Positions 1 through 40,677 of a stretch of 64,000 nt of DNA are shown here, piece after piece. The DNA comes from Nitrospirota bacterium. Lineage in GTDB: Bacteria; Nitrospirota; UBA9217. The position numbers were made by a program, and so were the translations under genes. The DNA lies in contig CAVVOB010000024.1 in assembly GCA_963749655.1 (NCBI GenBank), positions 1 to 64,000 on the forward strand, in the 5' to 3' direction. Within the stretch, counting starts at the first letter, position 1, and each line of letters begins with the position of its first letter. The notes under the pieces are model-generated. The model saw only the letters and a program-made list of their open reading frames with translations, did no database searches and was not told where the DNA came from.

Positions 1-284
1 TCGCCGTCGTACAGGCCCATGACGCCTTCGATCACGGCAATGTCGGCGTCCGTTGCATGGCGCGTGAAACATTCGAGAACATACTCACTGCCGCACATCC
101 ACTGGTCGAGGTTCCTCGAAGGCCGGTCTGCGACGAGTCGGTGAAGGCCGGCGTCGATGAAATCGGGGCCGGTCTTGAAGGGCTGCACCTTGAAACCCTT
201 TTTCCCGAACGCAGCCATGAGTCCCAGCGTCACTGTTGTTTTGCCGCACCCGCTGTGGGTGCCTGCGATCACGAGGCCGCGCAT
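1..284 (-). CDS. cbiA: Cobyrinate a,c-diamide synthase, 5' part (runs off window edge)
   Basis: Manual translation [23 protein letters not shown]...[13 protein letters not shown]...NLD...[11 protein letters not shown]; overlaps the cobD stop. Confidence 0.93.
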
Positions 285-1330
285 AGGGCTCCCATTTCCG
301 CGAGCAGTCTTGCGTTCTCGACAGGACCGCGCACTGCGACACGGAGATACGTACTGTCCAGTCCGTTGAACGAGGAACAGTCTCGCAGGAGTATCCCTTT
401 CCTCCGCAGGCGGGGCAAGGCCTCCGGTGCACGCTCGGTCCGGAGCAGGATATAATTTGCCGCAGGAGGAAGATGATCGATGCCCAGGGAACGAAATCCC
501 TGCGAGAGGAGCTCTTTCCCTTCCTGAATGATCTTCATGCTCTGCGCCTGAAATTCCCGGTCGTCTATTGCCGTTGTCGCGGCCAGCTGCGCCAGCGTGT
601 TGACGGTCCAGGGTTCCTTCTGTTTCCGCACGCTCTCAATCAGGTGTTTCGGCAGGACCGCATATCCGATCCGCAGACCCGAGAGCGCGTAGAATTTGGT
701 GAGCGACCTCAGCACGATCAGACAGGAGTTCCCGGCCACTTCCCGGACCACCGAGTGCTCCGGAGAAAAATCTATGAACGCCTCATCCACGATGAGGCAA
801 CAGGAATGCTTTTTCGCGGCTTTCACGATGGCAATGACCGACTCGCGGTCCAGGACCGTTCCGGTGGGATTGTTCGGGTTGCACAGGAACGCCAGATCGC
901 ATCCCGCCATGGCTTCGTCGAACCCGGCAGGATCTATTGCGAAGCCCTTCTCCCGGTGCAAAGGGAACGGGACACACTGTGTTCCCTCACGCATGCGGCA
1001 TGCCCGCTCGTACTCGGAAAAAGTCGGAACCGGGATCAGCACACGTCGGGGAGCGAGCGCCCGCACCAGAAGATAGATCAGTTCCGTGCTGCCGTTGCCG
1101 CAGAGAACCGATTGCGGATCGATATCAATATGCCCCGCAAGAAGGCGCGCAAGGCGGTCGGCAAAAGGATCGGGATAATGAACCAGCAGCGGGATCCCGT
1201 CCTTTATCGCCGCGACAACGGAAGCAGGCATGCCGAGAGGGTTGATGGAAGCGCTGAAATCGATGATCTCGTTGACCGGGATGCCTGTTTCCTCGGACGC
1301 GCTGTAAACGTCTCCGCCGTGTTCCCTCAT
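269..1330 (-). CDS. cobD: Threonine-phosphate decarboxylase
   Basis: HGG N-terminus, [40 protein letters not shown]; cob operon context. Confidence 0.92.
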
Positions 1331-2327
1331 AGGAGCCCCCGTACAGCGGCAACGCCGGCGGCCACACCTGCCGCGACCGCCGATGACAGCGCCACGAGGA
1401 CCAGCGCCCTCTGCGCTGCGGCGAGATAGTCCGTCCCTGCTTCCTGACCGATGAAGGGTTTGGCGCTCACCATCCCGCCGTAGGACGAAGGCCCGCCCAG
1501 ACGAACACCGAGCGCTCCCGCCATCGCAGCCTCGGACACTCCGCTGTTCGGGCTCGGGTGCTTCCTGCCGTCGCGCACCATGATCAGGAACGCGCTGCGC
1601 GCCGCATCGAGGGCTCCCCTGCTGTTCTGCGTCAGCGTGTACAGAAATGCCGAAGCAACGATGATGAGCCCTGACAACCGTGCCGGAACAAAGTTAGCCG
1701 CATCGTCCAGCCGCGCGGCAGCCCAACCGAAGTGGCGGTATCGGTCATTCTTATACCCGACCATGGAATCAAGCGTATTGACCGCCTTGTAAGCCAGCGC
1801 GAGCGGTAGACCGCCGATAGCGAGGTAGAGGAGCGGCGCAACCACTCCGTCGGACAGGTTCTCTGCGAGAGTTTCGATCGTGGCCTTGAGCACTCCCTGC
1901 TCGGACAGTTCCGCAGTGTCCCTGCCGACAATCATGCTTACGTGCTGTCGTCCCCCCTTGAGGTCTCCGTCTCTGACCGCAGCGATCACCCGGTGCGCGG
2001 AGCGGAGCAGTTCGCGTGACGCGATTGTTGTGGAAATAAAATATATCAGCGCCGCGGATCCAAGTCCTGCTGCAGCCGGATGAACCAGACCGCTCAAAAG
2101 CTCAGCAGTGAATGCTCCCGCGAGATAGGTCGATCCCACAATGCCGAATACGAGAACAACACCTGCCAGCCGTTCGCCTTCCGGAGAAGAACAGAGCCGC
2201 CGCAAAGCGCGTTCACCGGTGCTGATGGCCCTCCCGATAAGCCTGACCGGATGGGGCAGCCAGGCCGGATCGCCGATGAGCAGATCGACCATGAATGCCA
2301 GAAGCACCTGTGTAGCGCTGACCATGG

Positions 2328-2331
<4 letters not shown>
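1327..2331 (-). CDS. cbiB: Adenosylcobinamide-phosphate synthase
   Basis: GDPAWLPHPV, ETLAENLSDGVVAP, YKAVNTLDSMVGY, SPNSG motifs. Confidence 0.95.
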
Positions 2332-3885
<1,554 letters not shown>

Positions 3886-3896
3886 TGATTCCTTCC

Positions 3897-3933
3897 GCTC
3901 CCTGCGGAAGCAAAGATCACTTCCGCAGGGAGC
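3897..3933. other. Intercistronic 14-bp perfect hairpin between cobT and cbiP
   Basis: GCTCCCTGCGGAAG-N9-CTTCCGCAGGGAGC; no U tract, abuts the cbiP SD. Confidence 0.6.
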
Positions 3934-3969
3934 CGAGGGAAAACATCCTGCACCATTAGTACTGTGCAA

Positions 3970-5085
3970 TCAGTCCTGGGACTTTTCTGAAACTCCGGCC
4001 TCGCCGAAGGTGGCCATCTCGCGATAGATCTTGACGCCCGCCTCGATCATCTGCATCGCAAGCGCTGCGCCCGTTCCCTCTCCCAGCCGCAGGGAAAAAT
4101 CAAGGATCGGTGCGAGTCCCATCTTCCCCAGCATGGACCGCTGGCCCTGCTCGACGGAGAAATGGGCGGCAAACAGATAATCGACGACAGCCGGTTCGAT
4201 CTCGCAGGCGATCATCGCCCCGGCCGTCGAGATGAATCCATCGACGACAACGGGGACCCGTTCAGCAGCCGCGCCGAGGATAAGACCTGCAATGCCGCCT
4301 ATCTCGGCGCCGCCCACCTTGGCCAGGACGTCGATGGGGTCCTTCGGATCAGGGCGGTTCACGGCTATGCTCTCTTCAATGATCGCGATCTTCCGAAGCA
4401 GCGACTCATCGTTGATCCCCGTACCCCTGCCGGTAACATTCTTCACCGGCGTGTTCGTAAGCACTGCCGCGATAGCGCTCGACGGCGTCGTGTTGCCGAT
4501 CCCCATGTCGCCGGTGCCGAAGAGGGACGCCCCTTTTTTCGCATGATCCCGGGCGAGGTCGATCCCTACCTGCAGGCACTGCTCCGCCTCCTGCCTGGTC
4601 ATCGCCGGTCCTGTATGCATGTTTCTTGTGCCGCGGACGACCTTCCGGGACACGAGACCGGGTACTGCTCCGAAATCGTGGTCCACGCCGATATCGACGA
4701 CCACGACCTCGGCGCCCGCGTGACGCGCCAGGACATTGATCCCCGCCCCGCCGCGCAGAAAATTGAAGACCATCTGCGGTGTGACCTCTTTGGGATAGGC
4801 CGACACACCGTCGGCGGTGACGCCGTGGTCTCCCGCAAAGGTGAAGATCATCTTCCGGTCGATCGACGGCATGGTCTCTCCGGTGATCGCGACGATTCTG
4901 CGGGCGAACTCTTCAAGACGTCCGAGACTGCCCTGCGGTTTTGTAAGATTGTCCAGCCGTTTCTGCGCAATATCATAGAGAGATTTCTGGACAGGAGTTA
5001 TCAGGCTGCGGATGCCCTCTATCCCTGTAGCTGTCTTTCCATTGATTGTATCGACTGAAGGTTTCTTCCCTTGAGTTGTTTTCAT
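3970..5085 (-). CDS. cobT: Nicotinate-nucleotide--dimethylbenzimidazole phosphoribosyltransferase
   Basis: [37 protein letters not shown]; start taken at MKTTQ (see finding on the upstream in-frame ATG). Confidence 0.95.
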
Positions 5086-5278
5086 CTGTTTTTTCCTCTT
5101 TCCGATTTTGAAGTAAGCGATGACCCTGCAGTGTGCGGCAGGAAGCTTCCCGATCCGGCCCGGAGACCGATCGACGATATGCCCTGTTTTTAAAGAAGGC
5201 ACCCAATTCCCGGAACAATAAAACGACTACAGACTAATACTGGACCTGATCATTTCATACTCCTTCCGCGAAAAAGAT

Positions 5279-5419
5279 GGGATAAGACGTCTCCTGGCTG
5301 AGGGCACCCTACTTGCCGGCCTTCCCGTTCCCTTGAGGACGGTGGCATGCTCGGCGTTCGTTCCCATCACAGTTGCGCGTCAGCAGGGGAATTGCACCCC
5401 TTTCCGTTTTCTTACCCCC
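5279..5419 (-). ncRNA. Cobalamin riboswitch 2 (translational type, covariant core)
   Basis: AAACGGAA-AGGGGTGCAATTCCCCT-GCTGACGCGCAACTGT...GCCACCG...CGGGAAGGC...AGCCAGGAGACGTC; a downstream hairpin holds the SD AAGGAG. Confidence 0.85.
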
Positions 5420-5460
5420 CGCACTTCCAGGCCCTGCGGGCCGCAAAAACAATGCGTTCA

Positions 5461-5497
5461 AAATAAAAAACCCCAGCTTCCGGAGGAAGACTGGGGA
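5461..5497 (-). terminator. Intrinsic terminator, expression platform of riboswitch 1
   Basis: CCCCAGTCTTCC-TCC-GGAAGCTGGGG followed by TTTTTTATTT. Confidence 0.85.
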
Positions 5498-5552
5498 TTA
5501 ACAAAACTCAATTAACCCACACATAATCTTAACGCCGAAGACTGTGCGAGAA

Positions 5553-5720
5553 CACATCCGGCAGGTCTTCTGGCTCTCCCACCTCTATCAGCCTTCCCAG
5601 CCCAGTTTTGCGCGGCCAGTGGCGTTATTTCGATAGAGGCTTTGGCCCCCTTTAGAGGGGCAGGATTACAGCGGCGGGTCCGCTCCCGATTCTCACGGGA
5701 TTCCCTTGCCTGGATGTTTT
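5553..5720 (-). ncRNA. Cobalamin riboswitch 1 (transcriptional type)
   Basis: AAGGGAATCCCGTGAGAATCGGGAGCGGACCCGCCGCTGT...GCCACTGG...CTGGGAAGGC...GAGCCAGAAGACCTGCC B12-box. Confidence 0.93.
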
Positions 5721-5735
5721 GCGTATGTAACGGTC

Positions 5736-5764
5736 GTTATAACACACTTGCCCTGCACAGTCAA
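5736..5764 (-). promoter_or_regulatory. sigma70-type promoter of the cob leader
   Basis: TTGACT-N17-TATAAC just upstream of riboswitch 1. Confidence 0.7.
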
Positions 5765-5967
5765 GAAGAGAGACTGTCGGTGTCGAACGAACTGCAGCGA
5801 CATTAACCTGACCCTGCGTTGTCGTGAACATATCGTCGCCGGAAAGTGCCCCGGGTATTCCCGACAATGGCGGTATGGGTTAAGCGGACCCGATCCCGGC
5901 CCATTATGAAACAAGTCGGCCGAAGTCACTGGCGAGCCAAAAGACGCCGATAAAGGCATTTTTTCAC

Positions 5968-5996
5968 TTGCATGAACCCTGGTCTTATGGTATCTT
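5968..5996 (+). promoter_or_regulatory. sigma70-type promoter of rpmB
   Basis: TTGCAT-N17-TATCTT with extended TG. Confidence 0.55.
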
Positions 5997-6044
5997 TACG
6001 GCTGCTTTGCTTTAATATTATCGTAATCTCAGGAGGGTTTTACT

Positions 6045-6239
6045 GTGGCAGGTACATGTCAAATCTGCGGAAAAGGCAAGCTCAGCGGCAACAAAGTGAG
6101 CCATTCGAACAACAAAACCAAGAAAATGTCCAAACCGAATCTGCAGCCCGTGAAAGCGGTCGGACCCCACGGGGCGCATGTCCGGATGCATGTTTGCACG
6201 CGCTGTATCCGTTCGGGCAAGGTCAAGAAAATCAGCTAA
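6045..6239 (+). CDS. rpmB: 50S ribosomal protein L28 (Cys-containing, Zn-binding type)
   Basis: CQICGK...[11 protein letters not shown]...PNLQ...[11 protein letters not shown]; SD AGGAGG, GTG start. Confidence 0.96.
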
Positions 6240-6262
6240 CGTCTCTATGTCGCGGAACAAAC

Positions 6263-6297
6263 CATCCCCGCTGGTCAAACCAGTGGGGATTTTTTAT
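6263..6297 (+). terminator. Intrinsic terminator after rpmB
   Basis: ATCCCCGCTGGT-CAA-ACCAGTGGGGAT followed by TTTTTATT. Confidence 0.85.
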
Positions 6298-6451
6298 TCC
6301 CCCTCCGCCTCCTTCGCGCAGAACTTCCCTCTTAACGGCTCCGGAGAAGCATATTCATACAATACCGGCCTCGTCCGCACATTCTGTAAAGGGGCATGAA
6401 TGATGCAGGATTCAACGCTTAATACACCAAATTTCAGACTATAGCAATGTA

Positions 6452-6498
6452 TCAAATTATAATTTGAAGTTGACACGTCCGTTACACTGTACTATTAT
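6452..6498 (+). promoter_or_regulatory. 16-bp perfect palindrome abutting a sigma70-type promoter for the beta-propeller gene
   Basis: TCAAATTATAATTTGA (6452-6467), TTGACA (6470-6475)-N17-TATTAT (6493-6498). Confidence 0.65.
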
Positions 6499-6679
6499 TC
6501 CGATACTAATAATAAAAAAGAGTTTTATTCAGTTCTCATCAGTTGCGGTTTCTGCTTATCATCGAAGAACAAAAAAAGGAGGTGGAGGAAAAAACAAAAC
6601 TTCTGATGAATCCGAATTCGAAACAACCTGTTTTACCTGAGCACCTGGGTGCTCGGCAATACACAAAGGGGAGGAACTA

Positions 6680-7765
6680 ATGAAAAAGATTGTTTTAATC
6701 AGCTTGGTAGTCGTAACTGTTTTCGGACTCTTCCTTGGCATGTCGTTCAGAGCATCAGTTGATGCGGCAGATGTGCAGGTTATCACCGCAAAAGTAGCGC
6801 CGGCTGCAAAAATACCCACCTTTAACGCTACAGCATACATCGCCGGCCACGGCGGACACCTGGCAATCATCGATATGAAAACCGAGAAGGCCCCGACCGA
6901 TGTAGAGAAGGACCGTATCGTTCTTTCCGAAGCCGGATCCGAGATGGAAGGCAAGATCGCCGGCATGAGCTTTGAGGAAGTGAAGAAGTCCGGCGGATCG
7001 CACGGCCAGGAACTCGTGACGGACAAAGGCAAAAAATTCCTCGTAGCCGGAACACTGGCAGGTAACGTTTACAAGATCGACCTCGCGACCATGAAAAAGG
7101 AAGGCCCCTTTAAAGTCGGCGAGAAGTTCTGCGGCGCCATCACCGGTCCTGACGGCAATATCTACTTCGAAGATATGGCGGACGGTCATGTTTATATATG
7201 GGATGCCAAGACCCTCAAGACGGTGGACAAGATGCCGGTCGGCAAGGCAGTCTGCGGCATTCAGTGGACCAAGAACGGCAAAAAAGCCTACATTTCCGAT
7301 ATGCCCATGGGCATCGTTTATGTGTATGACTGGACAACGAAAAAGGAAGTCAAACAGATCGGCAGCCCCGAGATGACGTTCCTCCACCAGATCAGGATGA
7401 CGCCTGACGGCAAAGAGCTCTGGGTCAGCGCACCGAACGAATTCGATCCGGGTCTCAAACCGGGCACTCACAAGAGCCAGGTCATTGTGATCGATACCAA
7501 AACAGACGCGATCTCGAAGCGCATCATCCTTCCGGACGACGTGAGACCGCATGATTTCGCATTCACCAAGGACGGGAAATATGCATTCCTCTCTTCACGG
7601 ACCTATGGAGACGACAGCACCCTGAACATCATGGACCTCAAGAACTACGACCTCGTGGGCAAAGTGTCGGCATGCGCCGGCTGCCACAAGGCTGCTGGTG
7701 TTGAAGTCAAGATCGACAAGGGCTCACCGCTTCTCTGCGGTATCACGATCGATTGGCATAAATAG
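6680..7765 (+). CDS. Exported YVTN/YncE-like beta-propeller with His/Cys at blade starts and a C-terminal CxxCH
   Basis: Signal peptide; blade repeats (TPDG/TKDG...VYxxD); SHG, FCG, VCG, LHQ, PHD, LCG; CAGCH; SD GGGGAGG. Confidence 0.8.
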   Translation: MKKIVLISLVVVTVFGLFLGMSFRASVDAADVQVITAKVAPAAKIPTFNATAYIAGHGGHLAIIDMKTEKAPTDVEKDRIVLSEAGSEMEGKIAGMSFEEVKKSGGSHGQELVTDKGKKFLVAGTLAGNVYKIDLATMKKEGPFKVGEKFCGAITGPDGNIYFEDMADGHVYIWDAKTLKTVDKMPVGKAVCGIQWTKNGKKAYISDMPMGIVYVYDWTTKKEVKQIGSPEMTFLHQIRMTPDGKELWVSAPNEFDPGLKPGTHKSQVIVIDTKTDAISKRIILPDDVRPHDFAFTKDGKYAFLSSRTYGDDSTLNIMDLKNYDLVGKVSACAGCHKAAGVEVKIDKGSPLLCGITIDWHK

Positions 7766-7780
7766 TCTGGTTCTTTTCTA

Positions 7781-7814
7781 CGGGGGGCGGGCTTACCGCC
7801 TCCCCCGTTTTTTT
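7781..7814 (+). terminator. Intrinsic terminator after the beta-propeller gene
   Basis: CGGGGGGCGG-GCTTA-CCGCCTCCCCCG followed by a T run. Confidence 0.85.
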
Positions 7815-7823
7815 GACTTACTA

Positions 7824-7853
7824 TTTACTTAGACTCCCCTCTTCTGGTATAAT
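7824..7853 (+). promoter_or_regulatory. Promoter for the ABC/NosL operon
   Basis: TTTACT-N18-TATAAT with extended TGG. Confidence 0.55.
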
Positions 7854-7893
7854 TCCTCAATAAATCCACTCTGAAGGAAAACCGTTTGCTCCT

Positions 7894-9091
7894 ATGAATA
7901 TTCCCTATGTTGCCCTGAGAAACCTCAAGAGAAAACTTACGAGAACATGGCTTTTATTTGCCATCGTGGCAGTGGTGTCCTGCACGCTGTTCTCGGCAAC
8001 GCTCTTCCTGAAGAGCATCAACAACGCACTCAAGATCGGCACCTACCGCCTCGGGGCCGATATTCTGGTGGTCCCTGAAAGCGCCGAAACCAAAGCGAAA
8101 TCAGCCCTGCTGTCGGGAGAGCCTACCCAGTTTCTGATGGATCGCTCCATCCTCGACCGGGTCAGAGCCGTCGAATGGGTGAAAAGCGCTACTCCGCAAT
8201 TGTTCGTAAAACCCACGAGTTTCACCTGCTGCTTCAATGTGGACGTGTTCCTGATCGCCTTTGATCCGGAAACCGATTTTACCGTAAAACCGTGGCTCGA
8301 AAAGAACCTCAACAGGAAACTCGAACTCGGCGAAATCATCACCGGCAGGTCCGTGCCCGTCATTGCTGGTGACAAAATTCCCTTTTTCGGCACGACCTTC
8401 ACCGTCGCCGGGACCATGGAACCAACGGGCATGGATTTCTTCGATCGGGCCGTTTTCATGAGCCTTGACTCTGCCTATAAGATGGCGGAGGATTCCCGGA
8501 AAAAAGCCCTCCAGTCGATCGATATCGGAAGGGACAAGATATCAACCGTTCTCGTTCAGGTGAGGGATGACATTTCCCCCGACCGCGTCGCTATCAGAGA
8601 TCGAGCATGATATCAGCGGAGTCAAAGCCCTGGTCTCAGACACGATCATTAATACTGTACGAAAACAGCTTTCCGGCCTCATCAAAGCCATACTTCTCAT
8701 CAGCATCATATTATGGTTCATCGTTCTTCTCATCATGGCCTTTGCGTTCTATATGATCGTGAACGAGCGGCGGCGGGAAATCGGACTGCTGCGCGCCATC
8801 GGCGCCAACAAGGGGCATATAGCTTCGATTATTCTCTTCGAGGCGACCATGCTTTCCCTCGCCGGCGGGGCCATCGGCACGCTGCTCGGCTATGCCATTC
8901 TGTTCAGCTTTAAGAATCTCATCCTCCATTATCTCAAGCTTCCGTATCTTTTTCCCGATGCCGTACAACTGTTTTGGATCACCGCGGGCGCCCTTTTCTT
9001 TTCTCTCGTGACCGGGTTACTTGCTGCAGTGCTCCCGTCGCTTGCTGTGCTGAAAGTTGAACCTTACGAAGCCATAAGGAGCGCTGAATGA
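7894..9091 (+). CDS. MacB/FtsX-type ABC permease with extracytoplasmic CC motif (apparent frameshift ~8597)
   Basis: RLGADILVVP, FTCCFNVD, FDPETDFT; second frame VNERRREIGLLRAIGA plus TM helices. Confidence 0.85.
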
Positions 9092-9684
9092 AACTAATCA
9101 TTGCCGCAACAATGGCAGCATTCATGCTTGCCGGATGCAGTAAGGAACAAAAGGCGGAAGTCCCTGCTCCCGCATCGGAAGGAAAAAATATCTTTGAAGA
9201 AGTCAAAGAGCAAACCGTAAAAAATCCGCAGGACGCTGCAGCCTGGTATCATCTCGCAGACTTGTATGAACGATCGCAACAGTACCGCGAAGAAATCGAT
9301 GCGCTGAACAAGGTCATCTCGATCACGCCCGCGAACGGCAACGCCTATGTCAAGCTGGGGAATGCCTGCAACCGGCTCACCCTGTACCCGGAAGCGGTAA
9401 AAAACTACAAAGCTGCGGTCAAGTATTTCCCGAAAAATCCGGTACTCTACAATAACCTTGCCGTATCCTACGGAAAGCTCGGCAAGACCGATGAAGAAAT
9501 AGCATCCCTTGAACAGGCAATTTCCCTGCGGCCGCGGTATTCAACCGCCCGTTTCAACCTCGGTATGGCCATGCTTAAAAAAGGAAGGACCGAGCTCGCC
9601 AGGAAACAATATCGGGAACTCCTAAAATTCGATGAAGGCGTCGCCCAATCTCTCAACAAGGAAATCAACGCAAAAAGGAGATGA
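9088..9684 (+). CDS. TPR-repeat lipoprotein
   Basis: Lipobox MLAGC; TPR units AWYHLA, AYVKLG, LYNNLA, ARFNLG. Confidence 0.85.
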   Translation: MKLIIAATMAAFMLAGCSKEQKAEVPAPASEGKNIFEEVKEQTVKNPQDAAAWYHLADLYERSQQYREEIDALNKVISITPANGNAYVKLGNACNRLTLYPEAVKNYKAAVKYFPKNPVLYNNLAVSYGKLGKTDEEIASLEQAISLRPRYSTARFNLGMAMLKKGRTELARKQYRELLKFDEGVAQSLNKEINAKRR

Positions 9685-10094
9685 CAATGAACAGAACCGC
9701 ACGTTTCCTGCTGACCCTTTCACTAGTGATCATGATATCATTTCCCCTCTTTGCCCTGGCTGAAAACCCGCGGTGCGCGGAATGCGGCATGATGGTTGAC
9801 ATGCAGTCCAGATTTGCCGCTAGAATAGCTCAGGAAGGTTCAACTCTCTCCTTTTGTGATATCGGCGACCTGCTCTCCTACCTGAAACGTAAAGGCCCGC
9901 AGCAGCCCGGTGCGGAGGTCCAGGACTACATCAGCGGAAAATGGATGGACGCCCGCAAGGCTCTGTACGTCCAGGCGGAAAAGAAATTCAGGACGCCTAT
10001 GGGTTGGGGTGTAGCCGCCTTTGAGGACAGAACCAAGGCGCTGGAAAATGGCGCTGCAATGGATTTTGACGCAATGATAAAGGCACTGAAATGA
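9681..10094 (+). CDS. nosL: NosL-family copper chaperone
   Basis: CAECGM, FCDIGDL, WMDARKALYV, TPMGWGVAAF; signal peptide. Confidence 0.88.
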   Translation: MTMNRTARFLLTLSLVIMISFPLFALAENPRCAECGMMVDMQSRFAARIAQEGSTLSFCDIGDLLSYLKRKGPQQPGAEVQDYISGKWMDARKALYVQAEKKFRTPMGWGVAAFEDRTKALENGAAMDFDAMIKALK

Positions 10095-10498
10095 CAAAGC
10101 TTGTTGCCCTGACGGCGCTGGTAAGCGGCCTTCTGTTGATCACCGTACCGCGGTACATCCTGCCTGCCTGCGAATACGAAGGATACTCCCCCATGCACTG
10201 TTCGGATACCGCCCGTGCGGAATATATCGCAGGAGCTGTTCTCATAATCATCAGTGGAGCCGCTTTTGTTTTCAGGGAAAAACGCATGCCTCAGCTGATT
10301 AGCGCCGTGGCTGCCTGCGTCGTTTACGGTATTGCCTTCTGGCTCCCGGATAAGTTCGGCTACTGTCACAGCACGCGGATGCCCTGCAACTACGGCATGG
10401 TGCCGGGCGTCAGGTTCATCGCGGTTGCCGGCACGCTGCTTATGGGCGGCGCCATCATCGGGTTGTGGAAAACATCGGGAAAGAAAGGAACTGCATGA
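10091..10498 (+). CDS. Small Cys-containing membrane protein (DUF4418-like)
   Basis: Four hydrophobic segments with PAC...PMHC...GYC...MPC pattern. Confidence 0.65.
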   Translation: MTKLVALTALVSGLLLITVPRYILPACEYEGYSPMHCSDTARAEYIAGAVLIIISGAAFVFREKRMPQLISAVAACVVYGIAFWLPDKFGYCHSTRMPCNYGMVPGVRFIAVAGTLLMGGAIIGLWKTSGKKGTA

Positions 10499-11157
10499 TA
10501 GAATTACGAGGGCTTTCAAAATCCTATCCCTTATCGGGAACAAGCATAAAGGCCGTGCACCCGGTCGATTTGACCATCAAGCAGGGTGAATTCATTTCGA
10601 TCGTCGGGCATTCAGGAAGCGGAAAAAGTACGCTTCTCAGCCTTATCGGCGGCATTGCGCGGCCTGATACAGGAACAGTAAGCGTCAACGGCTCCGATAT
10701 CTGGCATTACAACGACAGGACTTTGTCCAAACTCAGGAACGAGCTGTACGGGTTCGTGTATCAGTTTTCAAGTCTTATTCCTACCCTTTCCGCCACGGAG
10801 AATGTTCTTCTCCCGACCGTATTTGGAGGCTCCAAAACGCATGGCGACGCGGTTCAGTTGTTGCAGCTGGTGGGGCTTGGAGACAAAAAGGACCGTTACC
10901 CGTCGGAATTGAGCGGCGGTGAACAGCAGCGGGTAGCCATTGCGAGGGCATTCATTAACGCCCCCCAGATCATCCTGGCCGATGAGCCCACCGGTGATCT
11001 CGATGAGGAAACAGAAGCCGAAATTATGTCGTTTTTTGAAAAGATCAACAAAGAAAAAAACGTCACCATGATCATGGTAACCCACAGTTCCGACCTGGCC
11101 CTTCGCGCCGCGCGAAGGCTCCGCATGAAACAGGGTGTCCTGGCAGAGTTGAACTGA
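10495..11157 (+). CDS. LolD/MacB-type ABC ATP-binding protein
   Basis: GHSGSGKST, LSGGEQQRVAIARA, ADEPTGDLD. Confidence 0.93.
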   Translation: MIELRGLSKSYPLSGTSIKAVHPVDLTIKQGEFISIVGHSGSGKSTLLSLIGGIARPDTGTVSVNGSDIWHYNDRTLSKLRNELYGFVYQFSSLIPTLSATENVLLPTVFGGSKTHGDAVQLLQLVGLGDKKDRYPSELSGGEQQRVAIARAFINAPQIILADEPTGDLDEETEAEIMSFFEKINKEKNVTMIMVTHSSDLALRAARRLRMKQGVLAELN

Positions 11158-11194
11158 CCGGTCCGACACACATTGTCCCGACGTCCCCATTTAC

Positions 11195-11233
11195 AAAAAA
11201 AGCGACGACCTCTTCAGGCCGTCGCTTTTTTTT
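11195..11233. terminator. Bidirectional terminator between the ABC operon and the cytochrome bc operon
   Basis: A7-GCGACGACC...GGCCGTCGC-T8. Confidence 0.85.
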
Positions 11234-11235
11234 AA

Positions 11236-11958
11236 TCACCTATGACCGTGCTGCCTATTTTTTTTCTTATCTCCGTAGAGATAATCATACTCCGCCGGAT
11301 GGTGGTGTTTGAGCTGTTCGACCGACATTTTCCCGGTGAGCCACATCCAGTTCATGGGGAACACTTCGGGCCGCAGATGCTCGTTGTAAAAATGGAAAAT
11401 GAGGATGAACACGATAGCCAGAAGCGCCTCATCACTGTGCATGGCGAACAGAACGTCCCATACCCACTGAAGCGACCAGGCAGGGAAAAGCGGAGAGATC
11501 GTCACCGGAAAGGCAAGAAAGAACCCCGACGCTCCGATGATGAACATGCCCCAATACACTGCCCAGTAGTCGAATTTCTGCATGTAGTTGAACTTGCCGA
11601 AATAGGGTTTCTCCTTCCGGAAGCCGAAGAAAAACATGAAATTATGGAATGCATCTACCACATCCTTGGGCGTGGGTACCAGGCTGAATCTGAACCCCCC
11701 CTTGCGCGCCTGATTGACGAGGTAAAACTGATGGTAGATGAAATCAAGGAGCATGGTGATGCCTGCCGCGCGGTGGATGAGACCGGCCATCTTGGCGCCG
11801 CCCCAGAAACTGATCCAGGCGCTCGCCGGGTCCTGGTATGCGTACTTGAGGCCCCATCCGGTGAAAGACAGCAGTAAAAAAGTCGTAAACATTATGACAT
11901 GCTGAATTCTTGCCGAAAGGTCGAACCTTTCGATCTCGTTCGGAATATTGTTATTCAT
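11236..11958 (-). CDS. Di-heme cytochrome b subunit (FdnI/HyaC type; CbcB-like)
   Basis: RIQH, IHRAAG, QKFDYWAVYWG, HSDEALLA, FHFYNEH. Confidence 0.88.
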   Translation of the reverse strand: MNNNIPNEIERFDLSARIQHVIMFTTFLLLSFTGWGLKYAYQDPASAWISFWGGAKMAGLIHRAAGITMLLDFIYHQFYLVNQARKGGFRFSLVPTPKDVVDAFHNFMFFFGFRKEKPYFGKFNYMQKFDYWAVYWGMFIIGASGFFLAFPVTISPLFPAWSLQWVWDVLFAMHSDEALLAIVFILIFHFYNEHLRPEVFPMNWMWLTGKMSVEQLKHHHPAEYDYLYGDKKKNRQHGHR

Positions 11959-12847
11959 GCTTGTCTCCTTTTCGGAACAGACGATCGCGAATATCCGCGA
12001 AGATATCCAGAAGAACATGGACGCAGATGAAAAGAAACACGCTCATCGTAAGTACGATCAACGCGAGCTCGGTAAAGTGCGCTATGGGATGGAGCGGCTT
12101 GTGCGTGATCGCGGCCACAAACTTGTCCGTGGCCCCCGGATGACATTTTGCGCACGTTTTCTTTTTGTTTTCGCCGTTCACCGGTGATGTGGGATCTTCA
12201 ACTCTCTTAATATCATGAGATCCGTGGCAACTGGCGCAGGAAGGAGCTCCGCTGTGGCCGACCTTCAATTTTCTGCCGTGAAAACTCTCAAGATAGCGTT
12301 CCACGACCATGGGTGAGAAGCCGTATTTTTCCGCCAGGTGTTTTTCCTCATGGCATTTGCCGCAGGCCTGAACAACGTTAAAATGATTTACCGCGGAGTC
12401 CTTGCTTGTTTTCGGCTGGATGTAATGCGGCGTTCCGTGGCAGCTGGTGCAGACCGGTCCGTCCTCTGATTTCTTGACAAGAACGTTCTGACCGTGAACA
12501 CTTGTCTTGTAGGCCTCGTACGTATCGGCATGGCACTGGATACAGGCAGCCTGTGCTATAGGATCGATCTTACTCTTTGAAGAGAGAGCTGCGGCCAGAT
12601 CCTGGGTCGCTTTGTCAGCCTTGCCTGACAAGCCTTCGTGCTGCGCTCCTTTCAATACCATGTGGCACATCACACAATCAAACGACCCATGAACGGACTT
12701 CGTGTATTTCTCCTCGTTCACATTGACGGAGCCTTCCATGGATCCGTGACAGCCAAGACACGTTGCTGCATTGGGCGCTGCTTTCGCTGCCGGAACCAGA
12801 ACGAGGACGAACATCAACAGCGATACTGTGGTGAGCCAATTCCTCAT
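11951..12847 (-). CDS. Heptaheme cytochrome c with C-terminal TM anchor (CbcA-like)
   Basis: Seven CxxCH (CLGCH, CVMCH, CIQCH, CTSCH, CGKCH, CASCH, CAKCH), signal peptide, C-terminal hydrophobic helix. Confidence 0.9.
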   Translation of the reverse strand: MRNWLTTVSLLMFVLVLVPAAKAAPNAATCLGCHGSMEGSVNVNEEKYTKSVHGSFDCVMCHMVLKGAQHEGLSGKADKATQDLAAALSSKSKIDPIAQAACIQCHADTYEAYKTSVHGQNVLVKKSEDGPVCTSCHGTPHYIQPKTSKDSAVNHFNVVQACGKCHEEKHLAEKYGFSPMVVERYLESFHGRKLKVGHSGAPSCASCHGSHDIKRVEDPTSPVNGENKKKTCAKCHPGATDKFVAAITHKPLHPIAHFTELALIVLTMSVFLFICVHVLLDIFADIRDRLFRKGDKHE

Positions 12848-13068
12848 ACGTTCTCCTTTCACTCCATAATTAATAATCATTTTTCACAAAGACAATGGAC
12901 TTTTCATTTGCTGTTATGAGGGGGGAATATGTTGCGAGAACGAGAATAAGGAAAGAAGTATCAAATGGATCCCCCGATTCCATTTTTCTTCCGGCATTCC
13001 TGGAATTTCTCCAGTCTCATGACTTCAAAAGAACTCGTTGATTATATGTTAATCCGGTGCACATATAG

Positions 13069-13101
13069 TGCACGTATCGTGCCAATGCCAACTAGTTGAT
13101 T
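13069..13101 (-). promoter_or_regulatory. sigma54-type promoter with adjacent IHF-consensus site
   Basis: TGGCACGATACGTGCA (GG-N10-GC, 13069-13084); AATCAACTAGTTG matches WATCAANNNNTTR (13089-13101). Confidence 0.7.
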
Positions 13102-13159
13102 TATTGATAAAAAGGGCAGACACCTTTTTCGCAATAATGAGAAATGGACATGAATTCTG

Positions 13160-13938
13160 TCATTCTTGCAAAGAGACACTGTTTGATCTCAATCCTTCCG
13201 CATATTCGACTCTGACCAGGTAGAGGCCCTGCGGCGGAGCTGTCCTGCCGGCTTTGGTCCGGTCCCGCAATTCGAGGATTCTTTTGACATCCTGCGCATT
13301 GAACCAGCCGAGGCCGACTTCTACAAGCGTTCCCGTTATGTTCCGGACCATGTACCGCAAGAAAGCATCTGCTTCGAGCGACACTTCTATAAAATCGTCC
13401 TTCTCTATAATGGCCGCTGAAGTGATGGTCCGAACCGATGTCCGAGCCGTGCATCCGGCGCCCCGAAAGGAGCTGAAGTCATATCTACCTATCAGATATT
13501 CAGCGGCATTCCTCATATGAGCCACGTTGAGCGGCACATTGATATGCCACGCATACCGCCTGTACAGGGCTGTCGGGGTACGTCTGCACAGTATTCGATA
13601 TACGTAGGTCTTCCTCTCGGCGCTGTAGCGGGCATGAAAATCCGCAGGAACCTCATCGGAGGTGAGCACCCTGATATCGTCGGGCAGCAAACGATTTAAT
13701 GCCGGCGCCCAGGCGCGCGCGGGATCCCGGAGGTTGTTTGAAAATGAGCAACCTGTCCCAGCGCATGCACACCTGCATCCGTTCTTCCGGAGGCATGGGT
13801 TTTTACCTCCTCGCGGGCCAGGTTTTTCACTGCTTCCTCGAGTGTATCCTGGATTGTCGGCATGCCGCTGCCGATTTGCGATTGCCAGCCGTGATAATTG
13901 GCGCCGTCGTACTCCAGGACCAGTTTGATTGTTTGCAT
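13160..13938 (-). CDS. truA: tRNA pseudouridine(38-40) synthase (apparent frameshift ~13720)
   Basis: EYDGANYHGWQ, SGRTDAGVHALGQV; then FHARYSA, FLRYMVRNITG, TAPPQGLYL. Confidence 0.93.
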
Positions 13939-21550: not shown

Positions 21551-23366
<1,816 letters not shown>

Positions 23367-23459
23367 AATGTATTGAAAAAACGGCTGCACAGGGCGGCCC
23401 GCAACGAATGACCCTCACGAGTTGAGTCCACAACCCTACCCCTGCATTGGATCCGATAA

Positions 23460-24407
23460 TCAAGTCCTTTCTGCTGCGATCTGAAGAGCAACGGCGGCAG
23501 AACCGACCATCCCGGCATCGTCGCCAAGCAGCGATGGCACGATGCGCGTCCGCTTTGCAGGGACTTCAAAAGCGCGACGAGCGACCTCTTCCTGAACGGC
23601 GTCAATAAACAGGGGCCATGCATCCTTTACGCCGCCGCCGATCACGATCATTTCCGGATTAAATATATTGATCAGGTTCGCGATACCGATACCGAGCATC
23701 CGCCCCATTTCTTTCATGACCTCAACAGCGATGACTGACCGTCCCGCGCCGCTTGGTAGACCTGCTCAGCGGTCACGTGTTTCCAGTCGCGTCGGACATC
23801 CGAGCTCCCCGTCGCGGTAGCTCTGCACGATGCCGCGGGCCGACGCGTACATTTCCAGACACCCGGTGTTCCCGCATCCGCACTTTCTTCCGTCGGGGAC
23901 GATCGTCATATGACCTATTTCACCGGCCATACCGTCGGCGCCATGCCAGATCCGTCCATTAAGCACAATGCCGCCGCCGACGCCGGTTCCCAGGGTGAGA
24001 AGAATCATGCTTCCGATTCCCTGTCCCGCTCCGAGCCATTGTTCGCCGAGCGCAGCCGCATTCGCGTCATTTTCAATGACTACCGGGAGATGCAATGCCC
24101 GTTCGAGCTCGTCCCTGAGCGGCAAATTGTTCCAGTCCGGGAAATTCGGCGACTTTACGACGATCCCTTTCTCTCCCAGGATGACGCCCGGTGCTCCAAC
24201 TCCGACTGCATCAACGCTCAAACCTCTCCGCTGTGCGAAGTCCTGCTGTGACTTGATGTTGTTGATAAGCCGAAGTACGACTTTTTTCCACCCGTCAGAC
24301 GCCAGAGTGGCTTCCTTGTGTTTCTCCAGAATCGTTCCATTCGGGCTTAACAGCGCAGTCCTCAGGTTTGTTCCGCCGAGGTCTACGCCTATCACAGCAT
24401 GCCCCAC
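23460..24407 (-). CDS. ROK-family glucokinase (apparent frameshift near 23780)
   Basis: GVDLGGTN, ENDANAAALGE, GEIGH, CGCGNTGCLE, IVIGGGV. Confidence 0.9.
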
Positions 24408-39412: not shown

Positions 39413-40677
39413 TCATCTCTCCCGACTTCCTGGCGCCTGACCCTGTTCAGCCGTCAACCTCCTGATTCTTTCCACCACCGGCGGATGGGAATAGTAGAAG
39501 CCCGCATACCACGGATGAGGGTGCAGATTGGACAGATTCTCTCGCGAAAGTTTCACCAGTGCCGAGGCCATGCTTCCGGATGGCCGGTCAGCTCGGAGGC
39601 AAACCGATCAGCCTCGTTCTCATCTCGCCTCGACAGGGAGCTGAACAGCGGGGTCAGCGGAAACATGGCAAGCGATCCTAAAAAACCGATGATCAGCGGC
39701 CGCGCATAAAAGGATGCCGTGAAAAGGCCAAGCAAGCCCGGCAGACCGTCCCAGTGAAATCAGGTGAAAGGCCGCAAACAACCCGACAAAATGCCATCAC
39801 TTCGGTCAGAACGATGCTTTTCAGAACATGCTGCTTCTTCCAATGTCCTACTTCATGGGCAAGAACCGCCAGGATCTCGTCCTGGGTCATCTGCTCGATC
39901 AAGCGTGTCGAACAACACGATCCGTTTGACCTTGCCGATGCCCGTGAAGTACGCATTGGAATGACGGCTCCGGCGGGAAGCGTCCATCTGAAACACACGG
40001 CTGACCTTGAGTCCGGCCCGCTCCATGAGCTGACGGATTCTGCTTTCCAGTCCTTCCGCTTTGACCGGTTCGATCTTGAAAAATAGCGGCTCAATGACAT
40101 AGGGCGATATAAACATCATAAAAATACCGAAGATCAGGAAAAAAGCCCAGACCCAGAGCCACCACCAGGAGGGACTGAGCCGGATGAGTTCGAGCACTGC
40201 GGCGGCTGCGGCAACGGACAAGATCGTCGAAACGGCAAGTGATTTCAGCAGGTCCGTGAACCACAGCCTCACGGTCATGGTATTGAACCCGAACCGGTTT
40301 TCGACCTTGAAGTTCTTATAAAGACTGAACGGGATATCGAGGATCGCCTCTCCAAAAAGAAGGACGAGAAAGAAAAGAATTCCCCCTCCCAGAAAAGAAG
40401 CGGTGACCGATGATAGCCAGAGGTCGTAGGCCCCCAAAAGGCCTCCGAAAAAGAACAGGGCGACGACTACATTGCCGGTGATCGACTCGATGATGTCGAC
40501 TTTGCTGGTTTCAAAGGTATATTCCGAGATTTTTTTCAGGTGTTCGGGGTCGATCACCCCGGCAAATTCAGGAGGAACGGTTTGGCCGTGCTGTTTTACA
40601 TGGTTCAAGTTCAGAAAAAGAAGCCAGTAGCGGAATGCAAGAATGAGCAGGTAAATTACGATCAGTATTTTAAACAT
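39413..40677 (-). CDS. M48 (Ste24/HtpX-like) membrane metallopeptidase (indels)
   Basis: RFGFN, DASRRSRHSNAYFTGIG, LAHEVGHW, ENEADRFA, YSHPP. Confidence 0.88.

Follow-up and report, generated by a model that had tools for sequence, protein, structure and literature searches.

Assembly of a copper centre by an ATP-binding cassette (ABC) system is understood in only one case, that of nitrous oxide (N2O) reductase, NosZ, which is served by NosDFYL. The original paper on the clade III enzyme, L-NosZ, is reportedly that of He et al. (Nature, 2025). In the available portions of two publications the Nos ABC complex is presented as a machine that transfers copper rather than as a pump (PMC13685413, PMC8457098). 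One of these, a 2026 review, describes in that portion clade III gene clusters without nosDFYL and with b-type cytochromes and a MacB-type ABC transporter, which possibly takes the role of NosDFY, and it leaves the maturation of the clade III enzyme open (PMC13685413). The accessible text of a 2026 survey says much the same of these clusters and places clade III NosZ in Nitrospirota, with transporter and cytochrome genes as neighbours (PMC13477213). Based on these statements, as far as the available text goes, maturation of a copper propeller by a MacB-type ABC system is already a printed hypothesis (PMC13685413). The locus described here, positions 6680-12880 of a 64,000-nt stretch of Nitrospirota DNA (the window), encodes an exported six-bladed beta-propeller with conserved Cys and His residues and a CXXCH motif, followed by a MacB/FtsX-type (type VII) ABC system. 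Genes were taken from a list of open reading frames (ORFs) and assigned to families by Pfam and NCBIfam scans. Every gene named in an earlier note on this DNA, which was written from the sequence alone and regarded the propeller as the client of a dedicated copper-loading operon, was found in its place.

The propeller gene (6680-7765, + strand) encodes a secreted protein of 361 amino acids with an N-terminal hydrophobic signal of the Sec type. In the AlphaFold2 (AF2) model (predicted local distance difference test, pLDDT, 88.5; predicted template modelling score, pTM, 0.86) six four-stranded blades were counted by hand on the DSSP string, which corrects the earlier note. NosZ has seven blades and seven His at its hub; the analogy drawn with its all-His CuZ site fails in detail, since the ring found here consists of three Cys and three His and is accompanied by a CXXCH. 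The structural matches with the lowest root-mean-square deviation (rmsd, 2.4-2.9 Å overall) were six-bladed propellers, among them 1npe (Z 25.1, 2.8 Å over 253 residues) and the SAKe6 designs (2.6-2.8 Å). NosZ chains gave Z 19.3-20.1 with rmsd of 4.0-4.4 Å. Thiocyanate dehydrogenase (TcDH, 6g5m_D), a periplasmic propeller enzyme whose hub holds copper with several ligands, was level with NosZ and below the six-bladed propellers (Z 19.8, 3.8 Å over 269 residues). To our knowledge TcDH has no CXXCH, and no link of TcDH to NosL was found in the literature. Foldseek against the Protein Data Bank (PDB) returned generic propellers only, with TM of about 0.5.

The CXXCH motif (C332-A-G-C335-H336), which is absent from the earlier note, was invariant in the alignments; one distant homolog (P0142) has CX3CH. 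In 22 close homologs H57, H60, H108, C151, C192, H236, H291, C332, C335, H336 and C353 were all invariant. Among 11 sequences with identities down to 28%, C192, H236, C332, C335 and H336 were invariant and H60, C151, H291 and C353 were kept in at least 90%. The nine residues of the crown and the motif (H60, C151, C192, H236, H291, C332, C335, H336 and C353) were invariant or nearly so in alignments of 22, 11, 32 and 59 sequences. All nine were present in 5/5 distant loci from other families of the phylum (30-51% identity), H57 and H108 in 3/5. The His/Cys crown that had been proposed is, on these alignments, real and conserved. In the model each inner strand has, within its first three residues, one of C353, H108, C151, C192, H236 and H291, in turn round the ring of six. 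The pair H57-x-x-H60 lies in a hairpin of blade 1, a conserved acidic lid (residues 82-106, containing the invariant EAGSEMEGK) joins blades 1 and 2, and the CXXCH is located in a short helix (333-338) linking blade 6 to the closing strand. From ordinary propeller topology we infer that ring, HxxH, lid and CXXCH would share one face around the central channel. The protein is exported and carries the motif by which c-type cytochromes are recognized; a c-type haem is most likely the (putative) ligand of the CXXCH. Since the signal is of the Sec type, any cofactor must be put in within the periplasm, as suits haem c, copper or zinc and not Fe-S or molybdenum cofactors, which are assembled in the cytoplasm.

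The propeller belongs to a compact and very conserved family without a described function. A protein search at 90% clustering yielded 975 relatives with E ≤ 1e-3, identity being 75-100% in the top 120, and a second search against 1.84 billion representatives at 50% identity gave only 20 representatives at E ≤ 1e-30, the remainder being generic YVTN repeat proteins. Database names, where given (YncE, BamB, cytochrome D1 domain protein, hypothetical), were uninformative; in the ESM Atlas the relatives fell into their own unnamed clusters, with names of the YncE or lactonase type. Against the PDB the family profile matched generic propellers only, the best being an archaeal YVTN surface-layer protein (110.6 bits), with hydrazine synthase beta at 68.1 bits and NosZ at about 33 bits. 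No description of the family was found in the literature on NosL, MacB/FtsX, DUF4418 and six-bladed CXXCH or copper propellers. The hosts, as named in the records, are mostly sulfur-cycling Thermodesulfovibrionales, Dissulfurispiraceae and Desulfobulbia, and anaerobes from soils, peat and sediments. In a soil RNA library, contigs covered 6670-6820 (2 differences) and 7645-7769 (none) of the propeller gene region; contigs give no ranking of expression, and DNA may be present in such libraries.

One homolog, P0126 (479 amino acids), carries a monohaem cytochrome c domain (PF13442, 31.4 bits, cut-off 27) inserted at the lid, at residues 123-181. This natural insertion points to electron transfer into the putative hub site. 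No fused forms of 633-2000 amino acids were found at E ≤ 1e-20, which is weak evidence. In P0128 (2470 amino acids) the propeller is one module of a very large protein, alongside a NosD-type beta-helix and an S-layer domain. Several distant homologs (P0122, P0124, P0135 and P0147) end in a short Gly-Cys tail (...PGC, ...GCG, ...VGC, ...LGCM) that is absent from the window protein.

On the same strand the propeller gene is followed by genes for a type VII ABC permease (7894-9091), a tetratricopeptide repeat (TPR) lipoprotein (9088-9684), a NosL-type Cu(I) chaperone (9681-10094), a DUF4418 membrane protein (10091-10498) and an ABC ATPase of LolD/MacB-like type (10465-11157). A scan of species-representative genomes identified 128 loci with a propeller relative; the best 80 were used, and in 67 of these the downstream flank measures 4 kb or more. 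The three genes for permease, TPR and ATPase were located behind the propeller in 61/67 loci, NosL in 19/67 and DUF4418 in 18/67. An all-against-all comparison of the neighbouring ORFs of the 80 loci revealed no other family common to more than 17 loci, save NosL in 21. In a second sample, 201 genomes of the phylum, the propeller was present in 38 and was patchy even in the window's genus (6/10). In 36 of these 38 genomes a permease ortholog lay no more than 3.6 kb away from it, and the propellers concerned range down to 38% identity. Among the genomes assembled in one or two contigs, G013, G095 and G106 hold the cassette. The exceptions were G127, in which the propeller match ends at residue 313, and G054, in which no permease was found with the window query. 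At 30% identity the propeller of locus L102 still adjoins a permease and an ATPase.

The universal unit is thus propeller, permease and ATPase, to which TPR is added in the window's clade, with NosL and DUF4418 as an optional feed. The earlier interpretation is partly supported by these counts: the idea of a client with its maturation operon stood, on the core of permease, TPR and ATPase (61/67 loci) and on the adjacency of propeller and permease (36/38 genomes), and NosL and DUF4418 did not stand as fixed parts. The co-occurrence survey that the earlier note had called for accordingly came out in favour of the ABC genes, with NosL, DUF4418 and cytochromes (17/67) mostly absent. TPR was present in 61/61 ABC-linked loci of the close clade and is missing together with the propeller in genomes G024 and G111. 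Median identities in 49 loci were 75% for the propeller, 63% and 55% for the N and C parts of the permease, 45% for TPR and 54% for the ATPase; outside close kin no other gene of the unit is as well conserved as that of the propeller. Transfer of the propeller gene, at which flat identities had hinted, was dropped as an explanation when a quick tree of 78 propeller rows put the syntenic loci in one clade.

The permease matched MacB_PCD (PF12704; 33.4 bits, cut-off 27) in 7894-8610 and FtsX (PF02687; 76 bits, cut-off 25.5) in 8567-9091. The ATPase matched ABC_tran (118.4 bits) and, at 230.5 bits and so under the cut-off of 307.75, the LolD model TIGR02211. None of the equivalog models for MacB, LolC/E, FtsX and LolD reached its cut-off on the ABC genes. 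A MacB periplasmic core, an FtsX C-terminal domain and a separate ATPase, by which type VII ABC systems are defined, were all found. MacB, LolCDE and FtsEX are resembled in the FtsX-type four-helix permease, whose helices 1 and 2 flank a large periplasmic domain, and in the LolD-like ATPase. The window system differs from them in lacking an operon-encoded membrane-fusion or TolC partner, in an ATPase below the LolD and MacB cut-offs, and in an invariant periplasmic Cys-Cys pair with conserved Met residues in the permease. The pair (C112-C113) was present in 65/65 sequences, M82 in 65/65, M189 and M197 in 64/65 and M180 in 61/65. The lipobox Cys of the TPR lipoprotein (LAGC) was kept in 65/66 homologs.

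The NosL-type protein (40.9 bits in Pfam, cut-off 24) has a Sec signal and is predicted to be soluble. Its ligand set is C32-x-x-C35-G-M37, C59, D63 and M107; C32, C35, M37 and C59 were present in 21/21 homologs and M107 in 20/21, D63 being read from the window sequence. In the available part of the report on the crystal structure of S. denitrificans NosL (SdNosL), Cu(I) is bound by Cys62, Met64 and Met145 and a structural Zn by Cys59, Cys88 and Asp92 (PMC8457098). By motif comparison with that part, the window protein matches the spacing of Cys59, Cys62, Met64, Cys88 and Met145 and has D63 at the place of Asp92 (PMC8457098), so that every ligand position of the crystallized chaperone is kept. 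Unlike canonical NosL, all 21 homologs have a Sec-type signal with an A-x-A-like site and no lipobox Cys. The DUF4418 protein (PF14387; 60 bits, cut-off 27) has four Cys and two Met (C27, M35, C37, C92, M97, C99) that were kept in 17-18 of 19 sequences; nothing pertinent on DUF4418 was found in the literature. A NosL match was present anywhere in the genome in 27 of the 38 propeller-bearing genomes and in 33 of the other 163, kin among these not being independent. Because NosL is missing from 11 of the 38 genomes and from most loci, copper is not established as the metal; the copper part of the earlier reading is plausible, not general.

The window's genome (G000) has a second copper cluster on contig C19 (L096:7236-12876), with CopD, a stronger NosL (97.9 bits), an FtsX-type permease and SCO1/SenC; this NosL stands between CopD and the permease, and SCO1 is nearby. 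Based on this second cluster, a type VII ABC system paired with NosL appears to be a copper module that recurs. Two lactonase-type propeller genes are found about 20 kb beyond it (L097:14420-18001).

Profile searches of all contigs of the window's genome, which is 86.6% complete, gave no nos_propeller (PF18764), NosD, NosZ or L-NosZ match over cut-off. The absence of nosZ and nosD that had been noted for the window therefore extends to the whole genome as assembled, and no canonical nosZ explains NosL. TIGR04246 gave 25 bits only, on the COX2 gene of another contig, by which a COX2-type cupredoxin is present in the genome. In the sample of 201 genomes true L-NosZ was found twice over cut-off and four more times at 534-696 bits; it was not found in the 44 genomes of the window's own family. 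No genome of the sample is in both the L-NosZ and the propeller lists, and only family f11 holds both, in different genomes. A Nitrospirota L-NosZ of 581 amino acids has a CuA-type cupredoxin motif and is flanked by c- and b-type cytochromes; another L-NosZ of the phylum matched nos_propeller and Cupredoxin_1. The permease, TPR and NosL of the window type were sought in five L-NosZ loci (four on short contigs) and none was found, and a window-type MacB permease as a component of L-NosZ loci was rejected on this result. Near a Nitrospirota L-NosZ, after a PetB-type cytochrome b, an 803-residue protein with a Vgb_lyase/SGL-type propeller (403 bits) is encoded (L105:13852-16263).

Compared with NosZ and NosDFYL, as far as these are described in the sources at hand, the locus shares a periplasmic propeller with a (here putative) hub site, a NosL with the same ligand positions and an ABC complex adjoining its (here putative) client. 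With clade III L-NosZ, as described in the available portion of the review, it shares the phylum, the absence of nosDFYL and the neighbourhood of a MacB-type ABC system and b-type cytochromes (PMC13685413). The ABC proteins differ from those of Nos, being of type VII (MacB_PCD with FtsX) in place of NosY with the beta-helix NosD; the TPR lipoprotein and DUF4418 have no counterpart there, and the window NosL is soluble and optional.

The best reading of these data, held tentatively and at a little short of even confidence, is that the propeller is a periplasmic haem and/or copper redox enzyme matured by a type VII ABC machine, in analogy to NosZ with NosDFYL. Gene content, residue conservation, the adjacency of propeller and ABC genes, the NosL ligands and the fold class come directly from the analysis; metal or haem binding by the crown, copper as the metal, maturation by the ABC system and a redox role are what we propose on that basis. 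The top face would form a composite redox site from the six-residue Cys/His ring, the H57-x-x-H60 hairpin, the acidic lid and a c-type haem at the CXXCH, and the Cys/His-lined pocket beside the haem would take copper or another thiophilic metal. The ABC system would pump no solute; ATP would move its periplasmic domain, as in NosDFY, FtsEX and LolCDE. This domain, with its Cys-Cys pair and Met residues, may load or activate the metal site of the propeller, the TPR lipoprotein serving as adaptor, and NosL and DUF4418, where present, may supply Cu(I) to the relay. In its most specific form the proposal is of a second, independently evolved ABC-driven assembly line, in which a type VII mechanotransducer, helped by TPR and fed by NosL/DUF4418, passes Cu(I) through the vicinal Cys-Cys to a six-bladed propeller with c-haem and a Cys/His copper (or copper-sulfur) site; this we consider doubtful.

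Several observations weigh against the reading as a matured redox enzyme. The geometry of the crown was inferred from strand order and not from distances. A disulfide could form between periplasmic cysteines, for example C151 and C192, and the CXXCH may bind either haem or a non-haem metal. The permease gene is frame-broken in this assembly, at a place without read coverage. In 6/67 loci the propeller has no ABC genes beside it. L058 and the group of L047, L048 and L054 each fall in the quick tree into a starred clade with an ABC-linked copy, which for L058 is L066 of the same metagenome-assembled genome (MAG); ABC-less L087 and L076 have no such starred pairing. TPR was not found with the window query in 4/5 distant loci and was rejected as a strict partner of the propeller. 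NosL gave no match at all in 11 of the 38 genomes with a propeller, and it is in only 19/67 loci. Finally, an operon of permease, NosL, DUF4418 and ATPase without propeller and TPR occurs in G024 (L099 5703-8492) and G111 (L100 3253-5952). Because of these two operons the ABC/NosL module has, or can have, another job, and the ABC part may be a module able to serve other ends. Permease identity in G024 and G111 is 73-76%, and in G111 the permease gene directly adjoins that of L28. At 44-46% identity, the more distant permeases of L101 (G022; 4284-7796) and L103 (G185; 4874-7583) adjoin a YeeE/YedE-like membrane protein, which together with a small exported protein stands where the propeller would be.

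An enzyme that works with haem alone would explain part of the same data. The propeller would then be a monohaem c protein with a ring Cys or His as distal ligand, acting on a sulfur or nitrogen substrate without copper, and the ABC/TPR proteins would regulate it or serve as its dock, like FtsEX for its hydrolases. The CXXCH is invariant in every alignment, the signal is of the Sec type, the organisms are rich in c-type cytochromes and mostly sulfur-cycling, and His/Cys-ligated haems are typical of the sulfur enzymes SoxAX, TsdA and DsrJ; the 11 genomes without NosL also agree with it. What makes it unlikely is that an invariant Cys-Cys with conserved Met in the permease is hard to explain without a thiophilic cargo, that a NosL with the full Cu(I) ligand set lies inside the operon in 19/67 loci, and that six ring residues and the HxxH exceed the ligand need of one haem. 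The propeller may also be no enzyme, serving instead as a periplasmic accessory, a cargo-binding or metal-buffering partner of a MacB-type exporter in, for example, copper or thiol detoxification, comparable to the YVTN propeller of the ABC operons of pyrroloquinoline quinone (PQQ)-dependent catabolism. A match to TIGR03866, the PQQ-associated ABC propeller, was weak (42.1 bits, cut-off 287); the operons without propeller in G024 and G111 and the second NosL, with CopD, FtsX-type permease and SCO1 on contig C19, are consistent with such a role. Against it the propeller gene has its own promoter-like and terminator-like sites, in distant lineages keeps its sequence far better than the transporter and has a cytochrome c domain inserted in one homolog, and the invariant CXXCH favours redox chemistry over plain binding, so that a non-enzymatic role appears distinctly improbable.

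The remaining explanations start from the resemblance to N2O reductase and from the neighbouring cytochromes. L-NosZ (NF052460) is the best NCBIfam name for the propeller (E 3.4e-13), and clade III NosZ with transporter and cytochrome neighbours is reported from Nitrospirota in the accessible text of two papers (PMC13477213, PMC13685413), as if this were a very divergent L-NosZ-like propeller after loss of its CuA domain. The match covers residues 113-245 only, at 48.9 bits against a cut-off of 700, and the same model weakly matches 7/14 control genomes. The propeller gave no PF18764, PF18793 or cupredoxin/COX2 match, and its 361 residues end with the propeller, compared with about 580 residues with nos_propeller and the CuA cupredoxin domain in L-NosZ; the two proteins align in BLASTP at 35 bits and out of register. 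With six blades and a mixed ring in place of seven blades and seven His, and with none of the window-type partners in the L-NosZ loci, a divergent N2O reductase is scarcely credible. The earlier note had also seen the propeller as a terminal oxidoreductase fed with quinol electrons by the operon that converges on the ABC genes. This operon (- strand) encodes a c-type cytochrome (11951-12880), whose ORF translation shows seven CXXCH motifs and a hydrophobic membrane helix at the C-terminus, and a Ni_hydr_CYTB-type cytochrome b (11236-12018, probable start 11958; 40.4 bits, cut-off 30.1). Geobacter CbcBA is described, in the available part of its report, as a seven-haem c with C-terminal anchor and a four-helix di-haem b (bioRxiv 10.1101/2021.04.15.440034), and the window pair has this architecture, the likeness being one of architecture only and set against that description. 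L-NosZ clusters have b-type cytochromes as well, both in the available portion of the review (PMC13685413) and in the L-NosZ loci examined here. The link to the propeller did not hold up: a cytochrome b and a multihaem cytochrome stand beside it in only 17/67 loci, all close kin, and the two operons lie on opposite strands, each with its own signals. In the quick tree 16 of the 17 syntenic rows, the window included, fall in one starred clade, and these loci share the L28 and truA genes too; for this reason the position of the cytochrome operon is inherited gene order and not a conserved partnership, and the quinol wiring is very unlikely.

The propeller gene and the ABC operon each have signal-like sites of their own. 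A promoter-like site (TTGACA, 17 nt, TATTAT; 11/12 matches) is located at 6470-6498 (+ strand) upstream of the propeller gene, a strong terminator-like hairpin of 9 pairs (8 G-C) followed by a T run at 7782-7804 (+ strand) downstream of it, and a promoter-like site of the ABC operon (TTTACT, 18 nt, TG-TATAAT; 10/12 matches) at 7824-7853 (+ strand). The sites that the earlier note had ascribed to the two units are present; counts of such sites in 6200-13200 were no higher than in shuffled sequence (6 against 6.1 and 9 against 8.6). When the window is aligned with 17 syntenic loci, the propeller gene's -35/-10 region proves conserved, as does an upstream block. The 5' leader (6576-6654, + strand) has a Shine-Dalgarno (SD)-like box, AAGGAGGTGGA, at 6576-6586, about 100 nt before the start codon, and a 6-bp hairpin (GAGCAC/GUGCUC) at 6639-6654, which the real ribosome-binding site follows after about 25 nt. 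Compensatory changes were seen at 3/6 pairs of the hairpin (15 sequences). Rfam gave no family for the leader at gathering score, and at E ≤ 1 one chance match to a snoRNA. A leader peptide was dropped as an idea, the upstream ORF being variable among the syntenic loci. Elsewhere in the window, two tandem cobalamin riboswitch aptamers (- strand, 5271-5453 and 5543-5729; 75.7 and 71.3 bits, gathering score 31.5) precede cobT-cobQ-cobD-aminotransferase genes at 269-5202.

In the window the permease gene is split between two frames, 7894-8610 and 8567-9091, by an additional base near 8596-8599 (VAIR/IEHDISG), which corrects the earlier note. In 65/67 related loci the permease is a single ORF, and both other split cases are in MAGs of one shared name prefix. 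Judged by Pfam coverage, three more genes of the window are apparently shortened: an EF-Tu-type GTPase with the GTP domain only (22473-23390), an ROK protein covering 195 of 294 profile positions (23766-24407) and an M48 peptidase with its N-terminal part only (39853-40677). This suggests indel errors in the assembly. Based on the intact ORF in the relatives, the common prefix of the split cases and the apparently truncated genes elsewhere, we think that the frame break is an assembly error. In public sequencing runs the share of matching words was at most 0.07, and in four runs the bin 8493-8653 was almost without coverage.

The locus offers a compact second case beside NosDFYL: a small, very conserved putative client, a type VII motor with a Cys-Cys pair and, in some genomes, a Cu(I) chaperone. 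If the assembly line proposed above is real, the propeller would be a haem-copper enzyme of an undescribed kind, which may act on a trace compound of sulfur or nitrogen in anoxic soils and sediments. Sulfur-cycling Nitrospirota may hide an undescribed periplasmic redox activity here, in an enzyme family without a described function, and the question can go straight to the bench.

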